DNA of 64,000 bases from positions 1-64,000 of the forward strand of contig NZ_JANODR010000017.1 of the NCBI RefSeq assembly GCF_031412795.1. Direction: 5' to 3'. The translations under genes were made by a program, and so were the position numbers. The stretch's first letter is position 1; each line of letters opens with the position of its first letter. Source of the stretch: Archangium sp. Its GTDB lineage: Bacteria > Myxococcota > Myxococcia > Myxococcales > Myxococcaceae. This document shows positions 23,727 to 30,775 of this stretch, piece by piece. The notes under the pieces were generated by a model, which was not told where the DNA came from, searched no databases, and worked only from the letters and a program-made list of their open reading frames with translations.

Positions 23727-25259
23727 TCAGCCGACGGCGGCGAGCGCGGGCGGGCGGGCCTCCTGGTGGAAGGCCGTCCAGTCGGGGTGGCGGGTGCGGC
23801 GATCGAAGTCGGTGACGAAGCCGGACCAGTTGTTGGTGATCTTCCCCGAGGCCGTCTTGTACCAACTGCCGCAGTTGGCGGCCCAGACGGACGTGGAGAG
23901 CGCCTGCTGAAGCTCCGTGTTGAAGGCCGTCATCGTCTCGGGCCTGACGTCGAGCCAGAGCAGGTCCTTGTGCCGCAGGGCCTCCAGGCACTGGACGATG
24001 TAGCGCACCTGGCACTCGATCATGAAGATGATGGAGTTGTGCCCGAGGTTCGTGTTCGGGCCATAGAGCATGTAGAGGTTGGGGAAGCCCGACACGGCGA
24101 GGCCCAGATAGGCCTCCGCGCCGTCCTTCCACTGCTCGTGCAGCTCGCGTCCTCCGAGCCCCTGGATGCGCATGGGCGCCAGGAAGGAGGTGGCGTCGAA
24201 GCCGGTGGCGAAGATGAGCGTGTCGACCGCGTGGCGCCGGCCGTCCTGGGTGAGGAGGCTGTTGCCCTCGATGCGCTCGATGCCGCTGGTGACGAGCTCC
24301 ACGTTCTCGCGCTCCAGCGTGGGGTAGTAGTCGTCCGAGAGCAGGATGCGCTTGCACCCGACGGGGTAGTCCGGGGTCAGCGCCTCGCGCAGCCGGGGGT
24401 TGGAGATCTGCCGGCGGAGGTGGAACCGGGCGACCTGCTCGAAGAAGCCGCTCAGGAAGCTGTCGCGGCGGAAGGCGAAGAAGCGCGCCTCCAGCTCCCA
24501 GTAGATGGCGGCGCGGTGCAGGGCCGCCAGCGAGGGGAAGCGGCGCAACAGGCGCTTCTTCAGCTCGCCTACCTTCTGGTCCGACTTGGAGATGATCCAG
24601 TTGGGCGAGCGCTGGAAGACGAGCAGCTTGCCGAGCTGGGGGGCTATCTGGGGGATGAACTGGATGGCGCTCGCGCCGTTGCCGATGACCGCCACGGTCT
24701 TGCCGGACAGGTCATGCGCGTGGTTCCAGCGCGCCGAGTGGAACCAGGTGCCCTCGAAGGACTCCAGCCCCGGCAGGGGGGGCGTGTAGGGGCGGTTGAG
24801 CTGGCCCACCCCGGAGATGACAACGTCGGCCTCCAGTTCCTGGCCATCGCGGGTGCGCAGGCGCCACAGGCCGCGGGGCGCGTCGAAGCGCGTGCTCTCC
24901 ATCTCCGTGTGGAAGCGGATGTGCGAGCGCAGCTCGTACTTGTCCACGCAGTGCTCGAGGTACCGGAGAATCTCCGGCTGCGTGGCGTAGGTGCGGCTCC
25001 AGTCGGGGTTGGGCTCGAAGGAGAAGGAGTAGAGGTGCGAGCGGACGTCACAGGCGGCGCCGGGATAGGAGTTGTCGCGCCAGGTGCCGCCGATCCCGCC
25101 CGCCTTCTCGTAGAGGGTGAAGTCCTGGAACCCCGCCTTCTTGAGGTGGACGGCCATGCAGATGCCGGCGATACCGGCGCCGAGGATGGCCACGCGCGGA
25201 GAGCGACCGGGTTCGCTCGCCGTGCCGGACTTCGTCCTGGTGTCGACTGCTCGAATCAT
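23727..25259 (-). CDS. Flavin-containing monooxygenase (FMO/Baeyer-Villiger type)
   Basis: Two dinucleotide-binding motifs (ILGAGIAG; VIGNGASA). FMO-type motif region. 510 aa. Confidence 0.85.
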   Translation of the reverse strand: MIRAVDTRTKSGTASEPGRSPRVAILGAGIAGICMAVHLKKAGFQDFTLYEKAGGIGGTWRDNSYPGAACDVRSHLYSFSFEPNPDWSRTYATQPEILRYLEHCVDKYELRSHIRFHTEMESTRFDAPRGLWRLRTRDGQELEADVVISGVGQLNRPYTPPLPGLESFEGTWFHSARWNHAHDLSGKTVAVIGNGASAIQFIPQIAPQLGKLLVFQRSPNWIISKSDQKVGELKKRLLRRFPSLAALHRAAIYWELEARFFAFRRDSFLSGFFEQVARFHLRRQISNPRLREALTPDYPVGCKRILLSDDYYPTLERENVELVTSGIERIEGNSLLTQDGRRHAVDTLIFATGFDATSFLAPMRIQGLGGRELHEQWKDGAEAYLGLAVSGFPNLYMLYGPNTNLGHNSIIFMIECQVRYIVQCLEALRHKDLLWLDVRPETMTAFNTELQQALSTSVWAANCGSWYKTASGKITNNWSGFVTDFDRRTRHPDWTAFHQEARPPALAAVG

Positions 25260-25455
25260 GGGGATGACGGTTCAACCTTTCCGGGCTGGATCATAACCGG
25301 CATCCCCTGGCCCGCAGGAGGGCAGGGGCCCCGGCTCAACGTGTGACGAACATCCCCCAATACTCCGGGCGCGGAACGAGCGGGCAGGAGGGGAGGGCGC
25401 CAGGCCGGGCACCTTGCTTTGGACAGGGGCTCGCCCGTGAGTCACCATCCTGGCC

Positions 25456-26382
25456 ATGCCCACCTCCCCAGCCCCACGCGCTGCCCCCTGGTGGGTGGAA
25501 CGCGCCGAGCTTCTCCTGGCCTCGAAAGAGGCGCGAACGCTGGAGCTGGGCGCGCTGTGGGAGCTGTTCGAGCGGTTCTCCTTCGTGCGGGAGAACGTGG
25601 AGCCGGACCTGCTCGTTCTGGACGTGCGAGCCCGTCCGGAGCTCCAGGCCCTCTGGGATGCGCTGGAGGCACGTGCGGGCTCGGTGAACGACGCGCTGGA
25701 AGTGGCCGGAGAGGATGTCGCCGAGCAGCTTCGTACGGGAGCGCTCGTCCCGGCCCGCTTCCGGGCACGGTGGGAGGGGCTCGGCTTCACCGAGGCCTCG
25801 GATCGCGCGAGCACGGCGGCGGATGACTGGCTCGAGGGACTGCTGCGCATCTCCCGCCTCACCACCGGCCCGAACCGGCCCCCGTGCGGTCAGGTGAACC
25901 TGGCCTCGCGAGCGCAGCGCATCTCCGACTTCCTCTCCATCACGAGTCCCGGGCAGCACGACACGGTCTACGACCTGGGCTGTGGCAACGGGAAGTTCGC
26001 CATCACCGTGGCCGCGAGCTCCTCGGCCCGGGTCAAGGGCGTGGAGTACAGCCAGGCCTACGTCGAGTCCGCGCGCCGCAACGGCGAGCGCTTCGCCCTG
26101 TCGAATCTGGAGTTCATCCACGCGGATGTCCGCGACGTGGACCTGTCGGACGGCACGGCCTTCTACCTGTACTTCCCCTTCTGGGGAGAGGTGGCGCACG
26201 CGGTGGCCCGGATGCTCGGGCAGGCCGCGCGGGCGCGGGACATCACCGTGTATGCCTCGGGGCCTCGCAACGACTACGGCGAGCACTTCCTCGAGCAGGT
26301 GTCGCAGGGGGCGCTGGCGCTCTCGCCGCATCGCCTGGACTTCGCGGACGTGATGGTCCTGCGCAGCGCCGCCTTCGCGTGA
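25456..26382 (+). CDS. Class I SAM-dependent methyltransferase with N-terminal domain of unknown function
   Basis: Motif I VYDLGCGNGKF, motif II/post-I acidic residue, about 150-aa C-terminal MTase fold. Confidence 0.75.
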   Translation: MPTSPAPRAAPWWVERAELLLASKEARTLELGALWELFERFSFVRENVEPDLLVLDVRARPELQALWDALEARAGSVNDALEVAGEDVAEQLRTGALVPARFRARWEGLGFTEASDRASTAADDWLEGLLRISRLTTGPNRPPCGQVNLASRAQRISDFLSITSPGQHDTVYDLGCGNGKFAITVAASSSARVKGVEYSQAYVESARRNGERFALSNLEFIHADVRDVDLSDGTAFYLYFPFWGEVAHAVARMLGQAARARDITVYASGPRNDYGEHFLEQVSQGALALSPHRLDFADVMVLRSAAFA

Positions 26383-26480: not shown

Positions 26481-26575
26481 TCATTCCCCCAGCCAGTAGA
26501 GGCTACGCCGGGTGCGTAGCACCTGCTCCAAGAACTCCGAGAACGAGCTGGCGATCTGTGTGCAGTATTCCGGGT
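26481..26575 (-). pseudogene. Orphan 3' fragment of a SUKH/SMI1-KNR4 immunity gene (about 30 codons)
   Basis: Translates to ...NPEYCTQIASSFSEFLEQVLRTRRSLYWLGE*. This aligns to the C-terminus of the adjacent full-length immunity protein (NKEYTWPLASSFSEFLAKALRSGGHQFWLDQQGK*). Confidence 0.45.
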
Positions 26576-26638
26576 TGGGTGTTGTTGGGCTCCACCGGGT
26601 TGCCACCCTCCGGTGAGGTTCAGCATCAGCAGGGCCAC

Positions 26639-27121
26639 TTACTTTCCCTGCTGGTCCAACCAGAACTGGTGTCCGCCGCTCCGCAGCGCCTTGGCCAGGA
26701 ACTCGGAGAAGGAGGATGCGAGCGGCCAAGTGTATTCTTTGTTACGCCATGCCTCCTTCCAGCCGTCCAGGAGGGGGTAGCGGCCATCGAGCTGTCGACT
26801 CACGTCCACCATGACGTAATCGCCATCCTGCACATCACAGATCGCATAGATGGATTCAGGACCCCACTGGTCTTCATCCTCACCGAAGATCGCTGCCCGT
26901 CCTCTCTCGATTTCGGACAGCGGGAGGATTCTGAATGGGGCGAATGGAGGTGGCTCGAACAACCGTGCCCCATTGCAGTGCAGGTAGAAGGCCCGCAGGT
27001 CCAGGTCCAGTTTCCACCCCACCCGCCGCTCGAACTCTTCGATCTCCTCAGGCGTGGCAGGCGGGTGCGGGAAGTGGTCGCGGGAGACCTCTTCGAGCAG
27101 GTTGCTCATCGGGGTGGTCAT
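26639..27121 (-). CDS. SMI1/KNR4 (SUKH-1) family immunity protein
   Basis: 160 aa. SUKH-1 pattern (PATPEEIEEFERRVGWKLDLDLRAFYLHCNGARLF...). Start ATG overlaps the stop of the upstream lipoprotein gene (ATGA). Confidence 0.75.
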   Translation of the reverse strand: MTTPMSNLLEEVSRDHFPHPPATPEEIEEFERRVGWKLDLDLRAFYLHCNGARLFEPPPFAPFRILPLSEIERGRAAIFGEDEDQWGPESIYAICDVQDGDYVMVDVSRQLDGRYPLLDGWKEAWRNKEYTWPLASSFSEFLAKALRSGGHQFWLDQQGK

Positions 27122-27123
27122 TG

Positions 27124-27780
27124 TCAGTTGTCTGTATAGGGCAGGTTGGGACCCACCGAATTCCAGGGGGCCTGTCCATCGTAACACTTCGGATACTCTC
27201 GGTTGAATACATCGTGAACTGTTGGCTCCGCCGGGATGATGTTGTTCCCATCGAGCGGAGCACCCCAGTGCCAGAGGTCTCGGATGTGGTGCCCTGGCCA
27301 AGCCCTGCCGCTCTCGACGGGCCACTCTCCGAATTTCTCGCTCCACGCATTCCGAAAGGATCTCATGCCGTTGCGCCACTCATTGCGTGCAGCCTCATTC
27401 TCCACCTTCGTACGCGTGGGGAATTTGCAGCAGCAGTGATAGATGCCGTAACGGCTCCCAGCCCTGACGGGAACGGGCAAGGGGACGAGGCGTCCCTCCC
27501 AATCGAATTTGAGGTCGGCCAGCCACATGCAGCCCTTGAGCGCATGGCCCTCCCTGTCGCACTGCTTCTGGCAGTCATTCATGAACTCCCGGCGGCATTG
27601 CCAGGGGCCATAGTAGAGCGTCGTCTTCATCCGCCCGCCCAGCACGTCCAGCCAGGGTAGTTCCTTCTTCGTCGCGGGTTGGACTCCTGGAGAGGGCGAA
27701 GGGCCAGATCCACCCGTCCCCTGGTTTGTCGCGCATCCGGTGAGGACCATCAACGACACCAATGTTGCGGCCAGCTTCAT
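27124..27780 (-). CDS. Cys/Trp-rich lipoprotein, candidate polymorphic toxin (SitA-like) cognate to the downstream SUKH protein
   Basis: Lipobox LMVLTGC; 218 aa; 10 Cys including CCC. No recognisable enzymatic motif by eye. Assignment rests on genetic coupling to the SUKH gene. Confidence 0.5.
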   Translation of the reverse strand: MKLAATLVSLMVLTGCATNQGTGGSGPSPSPGVQPATKKELPWLDVLGGRMKTTLYYGPWQCRREFMNDCQKQCDREGHALKGCMWLADLKFDWEGRLVPLPVPVRAGSRYGIYHCCCKFPTRTKVENEAARNEWRNGMRSFRNAWSEKFGEWPVESGRAWPGHHIRDLWHWGAPLDGNNIIPAEPTVHDVFNREYPKCYDGQAPWNSVGPNLPYTDN

Positions 27781-27870
27781 GGAGACCCTCTTGAGGATGG
27801 CACCCCTGATGGGTAGCCATTCCGATAAACTACCCGGCGGGTCCGACAAGCAGCGCCGAAGCGCCAGGCC

Positions 27871-28896
27871 TCACGGGAAGGTCACGTTGCCGAGGGTGAC
27901 GACACGCTTTCCGCTCTCGTCCCACAGCTTCAAGGTGAAGGGGCCTCGGGCTTCCCGGGCCGTCAGCTCCGTCTCCACCACGACCACTCCCGGCCGCTTT
28001 GGGTTGGGTGGGATGGGTGAGGGCTGCCAGATGAGCCTGAGCGGCTTCACCTCCTGATTCTTCCCCACCAGCACCGCACCGTTGACCGTCCAGGGCAGCA
28101 TGCCCGGGTTCGTCAGCTCCACCGCCACGGCCACCCGCACCACGTCCACCACACGTGTGGTGAAGCGATAGCTGATGGCCTTGTGGAGGCCGAGGGCGTT
28201 GCTCGGGGCCTTGATGACGCTCCTCTCGATGTCCTCGGCCTTCGTACTCTGGTCGCCCACGACCAGCGCCCCGCTGTCAATCAGCCCCGCGATACCGCCC
28301 GGCCCCTGCTCCAACCGCATCCGCTCCAACTCCTGGCCGAGCCGCCGGGACTTCTCGCGCTCCTCCTGGAGTTCCTTCTGGTAGTCCTCCACGGTGCGCT
28401 TGTGGCGGTACACGTCCACCTGCCGTGCCCCGAGCGCGGGGTGGCCCACCAGTTCGAAGGTGGCGCCCGTCGGAGCCGCACCATCCGCGAAGCGGACCGT
28501 CACCTTGAACCGCTCGCCGGGTTGAAGGTCCGCTGGGGGGAGGATGCTGAAGCTCCGCTTCCCGGGCGCCACGTCCTCGAAACGCTCAGGCTGCTGTAGC
28601 TCCAGCGAGCCCGGCACCAGCAATGAATCGAAGCGGAAGGTGGTGGACAGCTCCGGGCTGATGCACACCGCCTGCGGCTTGCCGGTGGGTTCCGCTGGCA
28701 GCTCCAGTCGGGACGAGGACGCTTCGCAGTCCGGCGGATGCGGCTGGGCGGTGGCGCCGGCCCCCGCGAAGAGCACCAGCGACAGGAGAGCGGCGGGAGA
28801 CAAGACGGACACGGAGTGGAGACCTCTCGCAAGGGGAATGAAACCGCGAACGTGGTCTCTACTACACCTTCCTCTCGGGTAGGGCGTGGCCCCCAT
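27871..28896 (-). CDS. DUF2381 (TIGR02268-like) family secreted protein, kinase-associated
   Basis: Signal peptide. Family-typical architecture with a coiled-coil (KELQEEREKSRRLGQELERMRLEQ) between beta-rich halves. Lies immediately downstream of a Ser/Thr kinase. Confidence 0.65.
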   Translation of the reverse strand: MGATPYPRGRCSRDHVRGFIPLARGLHSVSVLSPAALLSLVLFAGAGATAQPHPPDCEASSSRLELPAEPTGKPQAVCISPELSTTFRFDSLLVPGSLELQQPERFEDVAPGKRSFSILPPADLQPGERFKVTVRFADGAAPTGATFELVGHPALGARQVDVYRHKRTVEDYQKELQEEREKSRRLGQELERMRLEQGPGGIAGLIDSGALVVGDQSTKAEDIERSVIKAPSNALGLHKAISYRFTTRVVDVVRVAVAVELTNPGMLPWTVNGAVLVGKNQEVKPLRLIWQPSPIPPNPKRPGVVVVETELTAREARGPFTLKLWDESGKRVVTLGNVTFP

Positions 28897-28930
28897 TCAG
28901 GGTGCGGCCCGCTCCATCCCCGGGCCGGTC

Positions 28931-30775
28931 CTACTCGAAGCGGTCCACCACCTTCACATTCGGGGAGGAGTGAATCTTGACGGTCTCCTTCCCGGAGCCG
29001 GGCTCCATTTCAGCTCCGCGCTTGCTCTCCTGCCACATCTCCAGGCAGACCTTGTACGTGTCACCTTGGGGCGTCCGGGCCTCGGTGAAGCGGCCATGGA
29101 CCCGACCTTCCCCGAAGAGGAGACGCCCCTGGAGGAGGGTGCCCTCCGGCAGCTTCCCCCACGGGCCCAGAATCTCCACCGAGGTGAAGCCCTCGCGTAC
29201 GGGGATTCGCTGAGGCTCCATGTCGAGGGGGAGAAATTCGATGCCATGCGTCCAATCGATGCGGATGCCGAGCGTGTTGGTCATGGTCTCGACGGCCCCC
29301 GCCGGGCACGGCTCTGGCTCGGGGGTGGTGCGCACCTGGGCACCGGGACAGGCCGTGTTGGCGGCGGCGGCGGCACCGAGACACCACTTCGCCATGGGTG
29401 AGAGGGTCCCCTTCTGCTTCGTGTCCCCCTGGGGGTTGGGGGCCTGCGGCTTCTTCAAGGCGTCGTCCTTGGGTCGCGTCACCAGCGAGGCGACGACCGC
29501 GGGGGGTTGCTTCGCCGGGGGCGGAGCTGCGGCTCGTTCAGCTTCCGGCGGCGGCCACGCGGGCGCCACTTCCTGGCCCGGAAGCAAGCTCAACGTCGGG
29601 GAGGGGGGAGACGACGCCAGGGGTGGGGGCTGTGGCGTGGGCTTCCACCGCTGCGCGAGCCACCACCCGGCCAGGGCAACACCCACCAGCACGGTCATCC
29701 ACACCAACGCACGGCGGAGCGCCTGGAGCGCCATGTCCCGCAGGGGCAGGTCGGCCACCGTGGCCGGGGTCGGTTTCGCCGGAGCGGGCTCCACCGGTGG
29801 CGCGGCGGCCTCGGGCTTCTTCTTCCGTGCCGCGGCCCCCCGGCGGCCTCTCCTCGGTACACGGGGGCCTTCATGCAGCGGCACCCGCCAGGAAGCATCC
29901 GCACGGGCCAGCAGGTGCGTCAGCTCCTTCCCCAGCTCCAAGACACTCGGGTAACGCTTCTCCGGCGTCTTCTCCAGCAGCCTCATGCACACGTCACTCA
30001 CCACCAGCGGCACGTGGGGGTTGACGATGTGCGGCGGCAGCGGCTCCTTGTGGATGACGGCCTTCACCGAGGCCTCGTCATCCCATGCCACCTCGAAGGG
30101 GAAACGATGGGTGAGCAGCCGGTAGAGCACCACGCCCAGGGCATATTGGTCATCCGCCTTCCCGGGCCGGTAGGTGACTCGCCGCTCGTTCCAGTGCTCC
30201 AGGCCGAAGCGCCACGCCTCGGGGCTGCGGTAGTGGGGCGTCCCCGGGGGGAACATGCCCTCGGTGATGGTGGCCTGTCCCTCACGCTTGGCGGACCCGA
30301 AGTCCAACAGCACCGGCTCGCCATCCTCGTCGCGCACGACGATGTTGGCTTCCTTCACGTCCCGGTGGACGACATTCTCGTCATGCACCACGGCCAGCCC
30401 CCGCACCACCCCCACCATCTTGCCCACCACGGCCAGCGTGTCGGGGTTCTCTTCCCAGGCCCACACGTCGAGCGGACGGCCCTCGACGTAGAGCATCTTC
30501 AAGCAGAAGAACTCGGGCAGCACGGGCGGCCAGTAGCTGAAGCCCACCTGCCGCACGAGGTTCTTGTGCTGGAAGGACATGGCGAGGGTGCCCTCGCGCT
30601 CGGCCCACTGCCTGGCCCGGTGGAGCGGGACGAACTTGAGGGCCAACAGGGTGCCACTCAGCTTGTCCCGTGCCCGGTACACGGTGCCGTAGCCCCCTCT
30701 ATCCACCAGCTCTTCGATGATCGCGCCGTTGACGCTCGTGCCGGGCGGCAGGTCCGGCGTGTCTCGCTCGCTCAT
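28931..30775 (-). CDS. Ser/Thr protein kinase with TM segment and C-terminal extracytoplasmic domain
   Basis: GGYGTVYRARD, ALK, HRDVKEANIVV, DFGSAK. TM (LVWMTVLVGVALAGWWL). Pro-rich linker. Confidence 0.9.
   Translation of the reverse strand: MSERDTPDLPPGTSVNGAIIEELVDRGGYGTVYRARDKLSGTLLALKFVPLHRARQWAEREGTLAMSFQHKNLVRQVGFSYWPPVLPEFFCLKMLYVEGRPLDVWAWEENPDTLAVVGKMVGVVRGLAVVHDENVVHRDVKEANIVVRDEDGEPVLLDFGSAKREGQATITEGMFPPGTPHYRSPEAWRFGLEHWNERRVTYRPGKADDQYALGVVLYRLLTHRFPFEVAWDDEASVKAVIHKEPLPPHIVNPHVPLVVSDVCMRLLEKTPEKRYPSVLELGKELTHLLARADASWRVPLHEGPRVPRRGRRGAAARKKKPEAAAPPVEPAPAKPTPATVADLPLRDMALQALRRALVWMTVLVGVALAGWWLAQRWKPTPQPPPLASSPPSPTLSLLPGQEVAPAWPPPEAERAAAPPPAKQPPAVVASLVTRPKDDALKKPQAPNPQGDTKQKGTLSPMAKWCLGAAAAANTACPGAQVRTTPEPEPCPAGAVETMTNTLGIRIDWTHGIEFLPLDMEPQRIPVREGFTSVEILGPWGKLPEGTLLQGRLLFGEGRVHGRFTEARTPQGDTYKVCLEMWQESKRGAEMEPGSGKETVKIHSSPNVKVVDRFE

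Follow-up and report, generated by a model that had tools for sequence, protein, structure and literature searches.

The window analyzed here is a stretch of 64,000 nucleotides (nt) from Archangium sp. (contig NZ_JANODR010000017.1). At positions 26639-27780 it carries two co-oriented minus-strand genes, which encode a lipoprotein of 218 amino acids (aa) and a SUKH-1 (SMI1/KNR4) protein of 160 aa. The two very probably form a toxin-immunity pair in which the toxin is an HNH deoxyribonuclease (DNase). An earlier note on this DNA had located both genes exactly and had proposed a polymorphic toxin-immunity module resembling SitA/SitI, a lipoprotein toxin system of myxobacteria.

The gene pair and the predicted toxin fold

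The lipoprotein gene (27124-27780, minus strand) is composed of 218 codons plus a stop, as read from its open reading frame and translation. A Shine-Dalgarno-like GAGGG lies 5 nt 5' of its ATG. The SUKH-1 gene (26639-27121, minus strand) is composed of 160 codons plus a stop, and its product has no signal peptide. At the junction the minus strand reads GAC AAC TGA CA ATG ACC. The toxin stop and the SUKH start are separated by a 2-nt spacer, not joined by the ATGA overlap claimed earlier, and this tight spacing is repeated in nearly all related loci. The SUKH-1 assignment is borne out by a match to Pfam PF09346 at profile positions 1-124 of 125, far above the cut-off (E 4.1e-20; 73.1 bits against 25.4). 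Homologues number 141 for the lipoprotein, the best being Archangium minus F0U60_54370 (E 2.5e-135, 86% identity), and 367 for the SUKH protein at E up to 1e-10 (best E 2e-95). Given these numbers, both genes are judged to be real. Scans for promoters, terminators, and tRNAs returned nothing near the cassette, the segment common to the pair and its closest relatives (26598-27882).

The lipoprotein begins with MKLAATLVSLMVLTGC, a type II signal peptide (aa 1-16; 27733-27780, minus strand) with the lipobox LTGC, which agrees with the earlier reading. Figures on residue conservation rest on alignment A1, composed of 67 lipoprotein homologues. G15 and C16 are kept in at least 90% of these, and a canonical lipobox is present in 54 of 68 paired family copies. 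The +2 residue across the paired copies is Ala, Gly, Val, or Ser and never Lys; the window protein has Ala. The absence of Lys at +2 is the outer-membrane sorting rule for M. xanthus lipoproteins (PMC5562445), and the sequence of the window lipoprotein thus predicts sorting to the outer membrane. A variable tether rich in Gly, Ser, and Pro follows (aa 17-49; 27634-27732, minus strand) and is marked by low model confidence and high column entropy. It places ~33 low-complexity residues between the lipidated Cys and the toxin domain. Across the paired copies, the distance from the lipidated Cys to the YGPW motif at the start of the toxin module has a median of 39 residues (range 33-45).

The protein contains nine Cys (16, 62, 70, 74, 84, 116-118, and 199), one fewer than had been counted; the CCC triplet at 116-118 and the Trp richness (11 residues) had been described correctly. 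Invariant in A1 are H164, H165, D168, N180, and H189, together with C62, C70, C74, C84, and C199, and C116-118 are near-invariant. An AlphaFold2 model built from A1 has a mean predicted local distance difference test score (pLDDT) of 85 and exceeds 90 across most of residues 50-218. The score is below 50 for residues 1-25, and the signal peptide and tether are disordered to about residue 35.

The folded part is composed of two units. The first is a Cys-rich N-terminal subdomain (aa 50-118; 27427-27633, minus strand) with pLDDT above 90, in which a beta-sheet (strands 49-61, 81-97, and 104-118) is combined with a helix (64-76). It holds C62, C70, C74, C84, and C116-118. The second unit is a long variable helix and a predicted HNH (beta-beta-alpha-Me) DNase core (aa 119-218; 27127-27426, minus strand), which carries the invariant H164, H165, D168, N180, and H189. 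The helix, at 125-150, lies between the Cys-rich subdomain and the core, and the beta-beta-alpha unit is made up of strands 163-165 and 181-183 and helix 186-200. Fold and profile searches place the HNH motif in the segment PGHHIRDLWHWGAPLDGNNIIPAEPTVHDVFN.

The best Foldseek match to the model is Rhs2-CT of Serratia marcescens (probability 1.0, 26% identity, 66 columns). A profile of the helix-plus-HNH half with its distant homologues (A5) was searched against PDB sequences and matched Rhs2-CT (E 6e-8), the pyocin AP41 DNase (E 6e-6), EcoKMcrA (E 3e-4), and the colicin E9 DNase (E 9e-4). In the A5 alignment the HNH motif is in register with Rhs2-CT, pyocin AP41, McrA, and colicin E9. In colicin E9 numbering, H164/H165 align with H102/H103, N180 aligns with N118, H189 with H127, and N193 stands at H131. 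Sequence and model together indicate that the C-terminal half of the lipoprotein is an HNH DNase of the colicin, pyocin, and Rhs2-CT kind, with Serratia Rhs2-CT as its closest solved relative. The toxin domain, which the earlier note had held to be unrecognizable and possibly novel, has a known fold according to structure prediction and profile searches.

No Pfam or NCBIfam model covers the toxin domain. The HNH model PF01844 gives a sub-threshold match in only 2 of the 67 A1 members (E 0.0065), and P0142, a homologue linked to an Rhs protein, barely passes its threshold (21.6 against 21.4 bits). The AHH model (PF14412) matches none of the 67 even at E up to 1, and there is likewise no match to GHH or related models. 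Single-sequence searches of Pfam, NCBIfam, and PDB returned nothing but PCSK9_C2, an Lpp-like signal peptide, MLKL, and NDUFB7; these were rejected, since segments rich in Cys or of low complexity produce such matches by chance.

The Aravind-type HNH/EndoVII toxins (GH-E, GHH, AHH, LHH, and WHH) share with this family the PGHH signature and the preceding R..W..R..W helix. SUKH proteins are the classic immunity partners of these toxins. No member of the lipoprotein family reaches the corresponding Pfam models, however, and, within the limits of the tests made, the Cys-rich subdomain that precedes the HNH half does not belong to those families. The most distant profile matches, e.g., WPGEHTPSLKEGGDP, are presumably GH-E-like, as judged by eye; Pfam recognizes only RHS_repeat in two of them (P0192 and P0209).

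The DNases of colicins E7 and E9 and pyocins S2 and AP41 have the motif HH...GG...N...P...H in register with the window toxin. They are metal-dependent bacteriocins and are neutralized by tight, allele-specific immunity proteins encoded downstream. In contrast to the lipoprotein, colicins are soluble and have several domains, among them those for receptor binding and translocation, and their Im proteins are four-helix bundles rather than SUKH proteins. The last motif position also differs, being N193 in the lipoprotein family and His131 in colicin E9.

Rhs2-CT and its immunity protein RhsI2 (PDB 8cm0, 9t38) belong to the S. marcescens type VI secretion system (T6SS). Like the predicted window toxin, Rhs2-CT is an atypical HNH DNase, and it acts in interbacterial competition; homologues of the window toxin also form the C-terminal tips of Rhs proteins. 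The identity is ~20-26% over 66-81 residues, and Rhs2-CT lacks the Cys-rich N-terminal subdomain. It is delivered by T6SS inside an Rhs cage and not as a lipoprotein. Experiments have shown it to be a metal-dependent DNase effector, and RhsI2 has a novel alpha-helical fold that is not SUKH (bioRxiv 10.1101/2025.10.28.685041).

The Cys-rich subdomain has no significant neighbor in structure searches. It accompanies the HNH half on Rhs scaffolds and is missing from HNH-only relatives, and for this reason it is regarded as a separable unit. DNA binding, metal binding, and membrane entry are possible roles. In the Rhs protein P0135 (residues ~520-560), the equivalents of C62 and C84 are both Ala and the remaining Cys are kept. 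The sequences hint that C62 and C84 form a pair, either as a disulfide or in a shared metal site. The Rhs forms are cytoplasmic products; folding of the lipoprotein forms takes place in the periplasm.

Relatives on Rhs scaffolds and in myxobacteria

When 1.8 billion representative proteins were searched with a profile, 100 relatives were recovered. Residues ~50-217 form the C-terminal tip of several Rhs/YD-repeat proteins, directly past the end of the core at DPxG (P0135, of 677 aa, P0142, P0154, P0156, P0166, P0168, and P0132). Other Rhs proteins, and CBM96 proteins of ~1450 aa, end in the HNH half alone (residues ~119-194). In three of four Rhs loci the adjoining downstream called gene encodes a full-length SUKH protein of the same subfamily (family hidden Markov model E 5e-21, 9e-18, and 1e-14). 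The fourth (L082) has an uncalled downstream frame that looks SUKH-like by eye and is unscored. The GC content is 48-54% in three of the four Rhs-locus contigs, and these are therefore not myxobacterial. To judge from these sequences, the toxin domain moves between scaffolds with its own immunity gene, which is the defining behavior of polymorphic toxins. Since the module is an Rhs tip with a traveling SUKH gene, the window lipoprotein would essentially be a lipid anchor, a tether of ~33 residues, and a warhead. The P0135 contig also carries further Rhs fragments with other toxin tips, including an LHH nuclease (L081, 4687-6561), a typical Rhs orphan array.

For the lipoprotein form, a locus scan limited to one genome per species found 151 loci, of which the best 78 were kept for locus work. 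Nearly all 78 are from Archangium, Cystobacter, Vitiosangium, Hyalangium, Myxococcus, Corallococcus, and Myxococcaceae, and three come from one metagenome-assembled genome (MAG) labeled 'uncultured delta proteobacterium'. Some genomes contribute at least 5-6 copies to the best 78 of 151. Every untruncated locus of the 78 has a SUKH gene a few nt downstream of the toxin.

The 141 lipoprotein homologues can all be aligned over their full length, share one toxin domain, and differ by allele, at 42-99% identity. None has an unrelated, swappable C-terminal toxin domain behind a conserved N-terminus. Paralogues within a genome are always divergent (toxin identity 48-82%), and variation is concentrated in two regions, the tether and the long helix that precedes the catalytic core (residues 121-160). 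Toxin and SUKH sequences diverge together (Mantel r 0.755, p 0.001, 68 pairs). The alleles form discrete groups common to several species. The window pair belongs to group A, along with the pairs of L001 and L002; a widespread group B is made up of L019, L013, L006, L027, and L034, with SUKH proteins 94-99% identical.

In many loci there are additional SUKH genes of full length, fragments of SUKH genes, or pieces of the toxin 3' end with a SUKH gene behind them. Tandem modules also occur (three in L018 and two in L062), some toxin copies are frameshifted, and SUKH clusters exceed toxin clusters (367 against 141). Predicted prophage contigs hold eight pairs that are more distant. Among distant members with 40-43% identity (L085, 11-10467; L086, 7168-9170), one is set in a prophage tail module between a tape-measure gene, a Bro-N/P63C gene, and a gene for tail protein L, and another adjoins an IS630-type transposase (DDE_3 plus helix-turn-helix) and a DNA methylase. 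In two metagenome proteins, P0079 and P0110, the toxin and SUKH frames are fused by read-through or frameshift. These fusions probably arose as artefacts of sequencing or mutation, yet they serve as bridge sequences in alignments; on inspection, P0079 looked identical to P0002 in its toxin part.

The window cassette itself is 88% identical to L001 of A. minus over 26598-27882 and 87% identical to L002 over 26598-27818 (blastn). The products encoded in the window flanks (serine/threonine protein kinase (STPK), DUF2381, methyltransferase, and monooxygenase) are not found in L001 by tblastn, so the closest relative is in a different genomic context. The GC content of the cassette is 60.6%, with 0.74-0.76 at third codon positions, against 68-70% and 0.86-0.95 in neighboring genes. 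A blastn search of a plasmid collection gave no match to the module, and a look-up of the exact toxin sequence found no record of it.

Past the SUKH gene lies the remnant of a second, orphan SUKH gene, its last 34 codons (26484-26585, minus strand), belonging to another allele. Across its 34 aa it shows 97% identity (tblastn) to the L013 SUKH C-terminus. At the DNA level it is 95-100% identical to the SUKH 3' ends of L019, L034, L006, and L027, and 95% identical to the second SUKH gene of L022, a syntenic locus of Cystobacter fuscus. The near-identity to several loci is explained by one widespread allele group, B. A conserved recombination arm at SUKH 3' ends was considered as well and rejected; a sliding-window scan of 68 modules showed no general excess of near-identity. 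The window array therefore reads as an intact A pair followed by the relic of a truncated B-type orphan immunity gene. The converse arrangement occurs in two Archangium MAG contigs, where an A-type SUKH gene stands as an orphan right after another module's SUKH gene (L027, 90%; L052, 87%). In L027 a B-type module is found elsewhere on the same contig.

Compared with the syntenic L022, synonymous divergence (dS) is 0.80 and 1.07 in the cassette genes and 0.28 and 0.40 in the adjacent kinase and DUF2381 genes, i.e., 2-4 times higher in the cassette. The pattern suggests, and is compatible with, the replacement of alleles at a conserved site; a weaker codon bias may be a further contributor.

Delivery and competing explanations

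The toxin-immunity core of the earlier proposal is well supported because the module has SUKH partners on Rhs scaffolds, occurs as multi-copy pairs of divergent paralogues, diverges together with its partner, leaves orphan and fragmentary genes, including the window remnant, and occupies mobile-element sites. The SitA-like logic also stands, whereas membership in a SitA family is not upheld, as the escort domain is absent. The family appears to be an HNH toxin/SUKH immunity family uncharacterized so far, whose myxobacterial form is a minimal lipoprotein, SitA-like and escort-less.

SitA3-7 were reportedly defined in a 2019 PNAS paper by Vassallo and Wall. The six SitA families are defined by N-terminal escort domains of ~375 aa, which the toxins use for cytoplasmic entry (PMC8546572). 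SitA1 is a lipoprotein nuclease of the HNH superfamily that is delivered by outer-membrane exchange (OME), a process that transfers outer-membrane lipoproteins efficiently and in bulk, and its immunity protein SitI1 is a SUKH protein (PMC5562445, PMC12390754).

The window pair resembles SitA1/SitI1 in several respects. Both toxins are outer-membrane lipoproteins, by prediction in the window, with a C-terminal HNH-superfamily nuclease, both are followed immediately by the immunity gene, and the immunity protein is SUKH in both. Both systems have many divergent loci per genome in the Cystobacterineae, often on mobile elements. The differences concern entry and architecture. The window toxin lacks the ~375-aa escort, since only ~33 linker residues lie between the lipid anchor and the toxin (SitA4-7 being compared by description), and no escort-less SitA class is described in the later literature searched. 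The mature window protein is one module that co-varies from end to end, not a fixed N-terminus with swapped C-termini. Its upstream gene encodes DUF2381 and is not sitB, and its transfer by TraAB is conjectural.

The explanation favored overall, with somewhat better than even confidence, is an interbacterial competition cassette composed of an OME-delivered HNH DNase and its SUKH partner. The first product would be exported by Sec, lipidated at C16, and anchored in the outer membrane by the flexible tether of ~33 residues, steps for which sequence rules give good support. Its residues ~50-218 would constitute a single toxin module, made up of the Cys-rich beta/alpha subdomain, the long helix, and a metal-dependent HNH DNase core (H164/H165, N180, and H189). 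The second product, a presumed cytoplasmic SUKH-1 protein, would bind and neutralize the cognate toxin allele. The lipoprotein would be passed to neighboring myxobacteria with the bulk lipoprotein cargo of TraAB-mediated OME. It would then enter the recipient cytoplasm without a SitA-type escort domain, possibly aided by the Cys-rich subdomain, and degrade the DNA of cells that have no matching SUKH allele. Several divergent pairs and orphan SUKH genes per genome would make up a strain-specific compatibility code.

The delivery step, taken separately, is tentative and is put slightly below an even chance. OME is plausible by analogy, and the bulk transfer of lipoproteins, the SitA1/SitI1 precedent, the conserved lipobox with no Lys at +2, and record titles that place nearly all 78 lipoprotein-form loci in the Archangiaceae or Myxococcaceae point weakly toward it. 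A bolder version would make the family a seventh, minimal class of OME toxins, with only a short tether between its lipid anchor and a module borrowed from Rhs proteins. The Cys-rich subdomain would then be a delivery-independent device for crossing the inner membrane that replaces the escort. This version is considered rather unlikely.

Several observations weigh against an OME-delivered toxin and its cognate SUKH protein. Import after OME has no known route, since the ~375-aa escort domain is missing. The lipidated Cys is lost in ~6 of the 68 copies, including the closest homologue and four in one genome, so that not every member of the family depends on lipid anchoring; some members may be secreted unlipidated, or may be in decay. 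The SUKH protein is slightly more conserved than the toxin, with a mean pairwise identity of 69% against 62% (68 pairs). Among the three closest alleles the ratio of nonsynonymous to synonymous substitution rates (dN/dS, Nei-Gojobori) is 0.16-0.38, the variable helix included. This indicates purifying selection among close alleles and lends no support to diversifying selection. The HNH region of the window toxin is below every Pfam threshold. A model of the natural toxin-SUKH fusion P0079, computed from an alignment centered on that protein (A3), has a predicted template modeling score of 0.49, a low-confidence SUKH half, and no usable interface.

Copies with a replaced lipid Cys and an otherwise intact sequence are found at L001 (6001-6654), L033, L036, L044, L046, and L056. 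A. minus F0U60_54370 has LTGS in place of the lipobox, and the genome with four Cys-less copies is that of Myxococcaceae bacterium GXIMD 01537.

Delivery of the same pair by a route other than OME is the strongest competitor, although it is unlikely. The toxin would reach competitors or prey through outer-membrane vesicles or surface exposure, and SUKH would shield the producing cell and its kin from toxin that re-enters or is mislocalized. The missing escort domain fits such a route, as do the several Cys-less copies that keep the signal peptide and an intact toxin-SUKH pair. The same toxin module is, moreover, placed on Rhs scaffolds in genomes of 48-54% GC outside the myxobacteria. However, the divergent paralogues and orphan immunity genes within close species point to conflict among relatives rather than to the killing of prey. 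The lipobox is also kept in most copies, and the lipoprotein form is found essentially in Archangiaceae and Myxococcaceae records among the best 78 loci.

A housekeeping role is quite improbable. On the model of NucA-NuiA or barnase-barstar, the lipoprotein would be an envelope nuclease that breaks down extracellular or periplasmic DNA as a nutrient, and SUKH would guard the producer cytoplasm before export. An exported HNH DNase next to the gene of a cytoplasmic partner is what this predicts, and both genes are under purifying selection. On the other hand, five or more divergent copies per genome, orphan inhibitors, fragments, and prophage or insertion sequence sites are not expected of a housekeeping enzyme. 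The same domain also tips polymorphic Rhs toxins, and the closest relative of the cassette is in another genomic context.

The chance that the locus now serves mainly for immunity is slimmer still. The toxin would be inactive or undelivered, with SUKH genes guarding against the toxins of neighbors. In line with this idea, orphan SUKH genes are frequent, some copies of the toxin are frameshifted or lack the lipobox Cys, and the window allele has Trp at the near-invariant G172. Position 172 varies, though, among distant homologues of the active type. The window toxin is full-length, its lipobox is intact, all invariant catalytic residues are present, and its dN/dS against close alleles (0.24-0.28) indicates that purifying selection continues.

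Least probable of all is a regular member of a described SitA family, such as SitA4, SitA6, or SitA7: these vary only by allele and are likewise non-modular, and the window pair fits in its lipobox, its C-terminal nuclease, the immunity gene downstream, and its multi-copy distribution, but the six families have the ~375-aa escort, and those alleles of SitA4 and SitA6 that were tested have AHH nucleases (PMC8546572), a domain that the window family does not match. The window protein has only 218 aa, its folded part is the Rhs toxin module, and no M. xanthus or M. fulvus locus is among the best 78 of 151.

The OME-delivered cassette, if correct, bears on how SitA-type toxins are thought to enter cells. 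The current view is that a large, family-specific escort domain carries the OME-delivered toxin from the outer membrane to the cytoplasm. If the window lipoprotein is delivered by OME and is toxic, a much smaller module suffices for entry, and an import system of 200 aa would be tractable. If it is not delivered by OME, myxobacteria would have a second, OME-independent use of lipoprotein toxins. If it is merely another HNH/SUKH pair delivered like SitA, the result is a useful annotation and unsurprising. New here are an unannotated HNH toxin family and a dedicated SUKH subfamily, with modules common to the Rhs effectors of unrelated bacteria. Members are at present annotated only as 'hypothetical protein', 'lipoprotein', or 'SMI1/KNR4 family protein', and their inclusion would enlarge the self-identity repertoire counted in Archangiaceae genomes.

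Neighboring genes

Directly upstream and co-oriented with the pair (27871-30775, minus strand) are genes for an STPK of 614 aa with a C-terminal extracytoplasmic part and for a DUF2381 protein (PF09544). The order STPK-DUF2381-toxin-SUKH is syntenic in the Cystobacter fuscus locus L022 (80% DNA identity), and paralogous STPK-DUF2381 pairs also flank cassettes among L017, L018, L021, L026, and L052. The association may reflect a functional link or an insertion hot spot. DUF2381 was considered as a possible SitB and rejected: the upstream gene is a clear PF09544 member, and for SitB no match to any known domain is reported (PMC5562445).

Downstream (19882-26382) are genes for an MMPL/RND-type transporter of 813 aa, a cytochrome P450, a flavin monooxygenase, and an S-adenosylmethionine-dependent methyltransferase. 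This group may be a small-molecule modification or export cluster and is apparently unrelated to the cassette.

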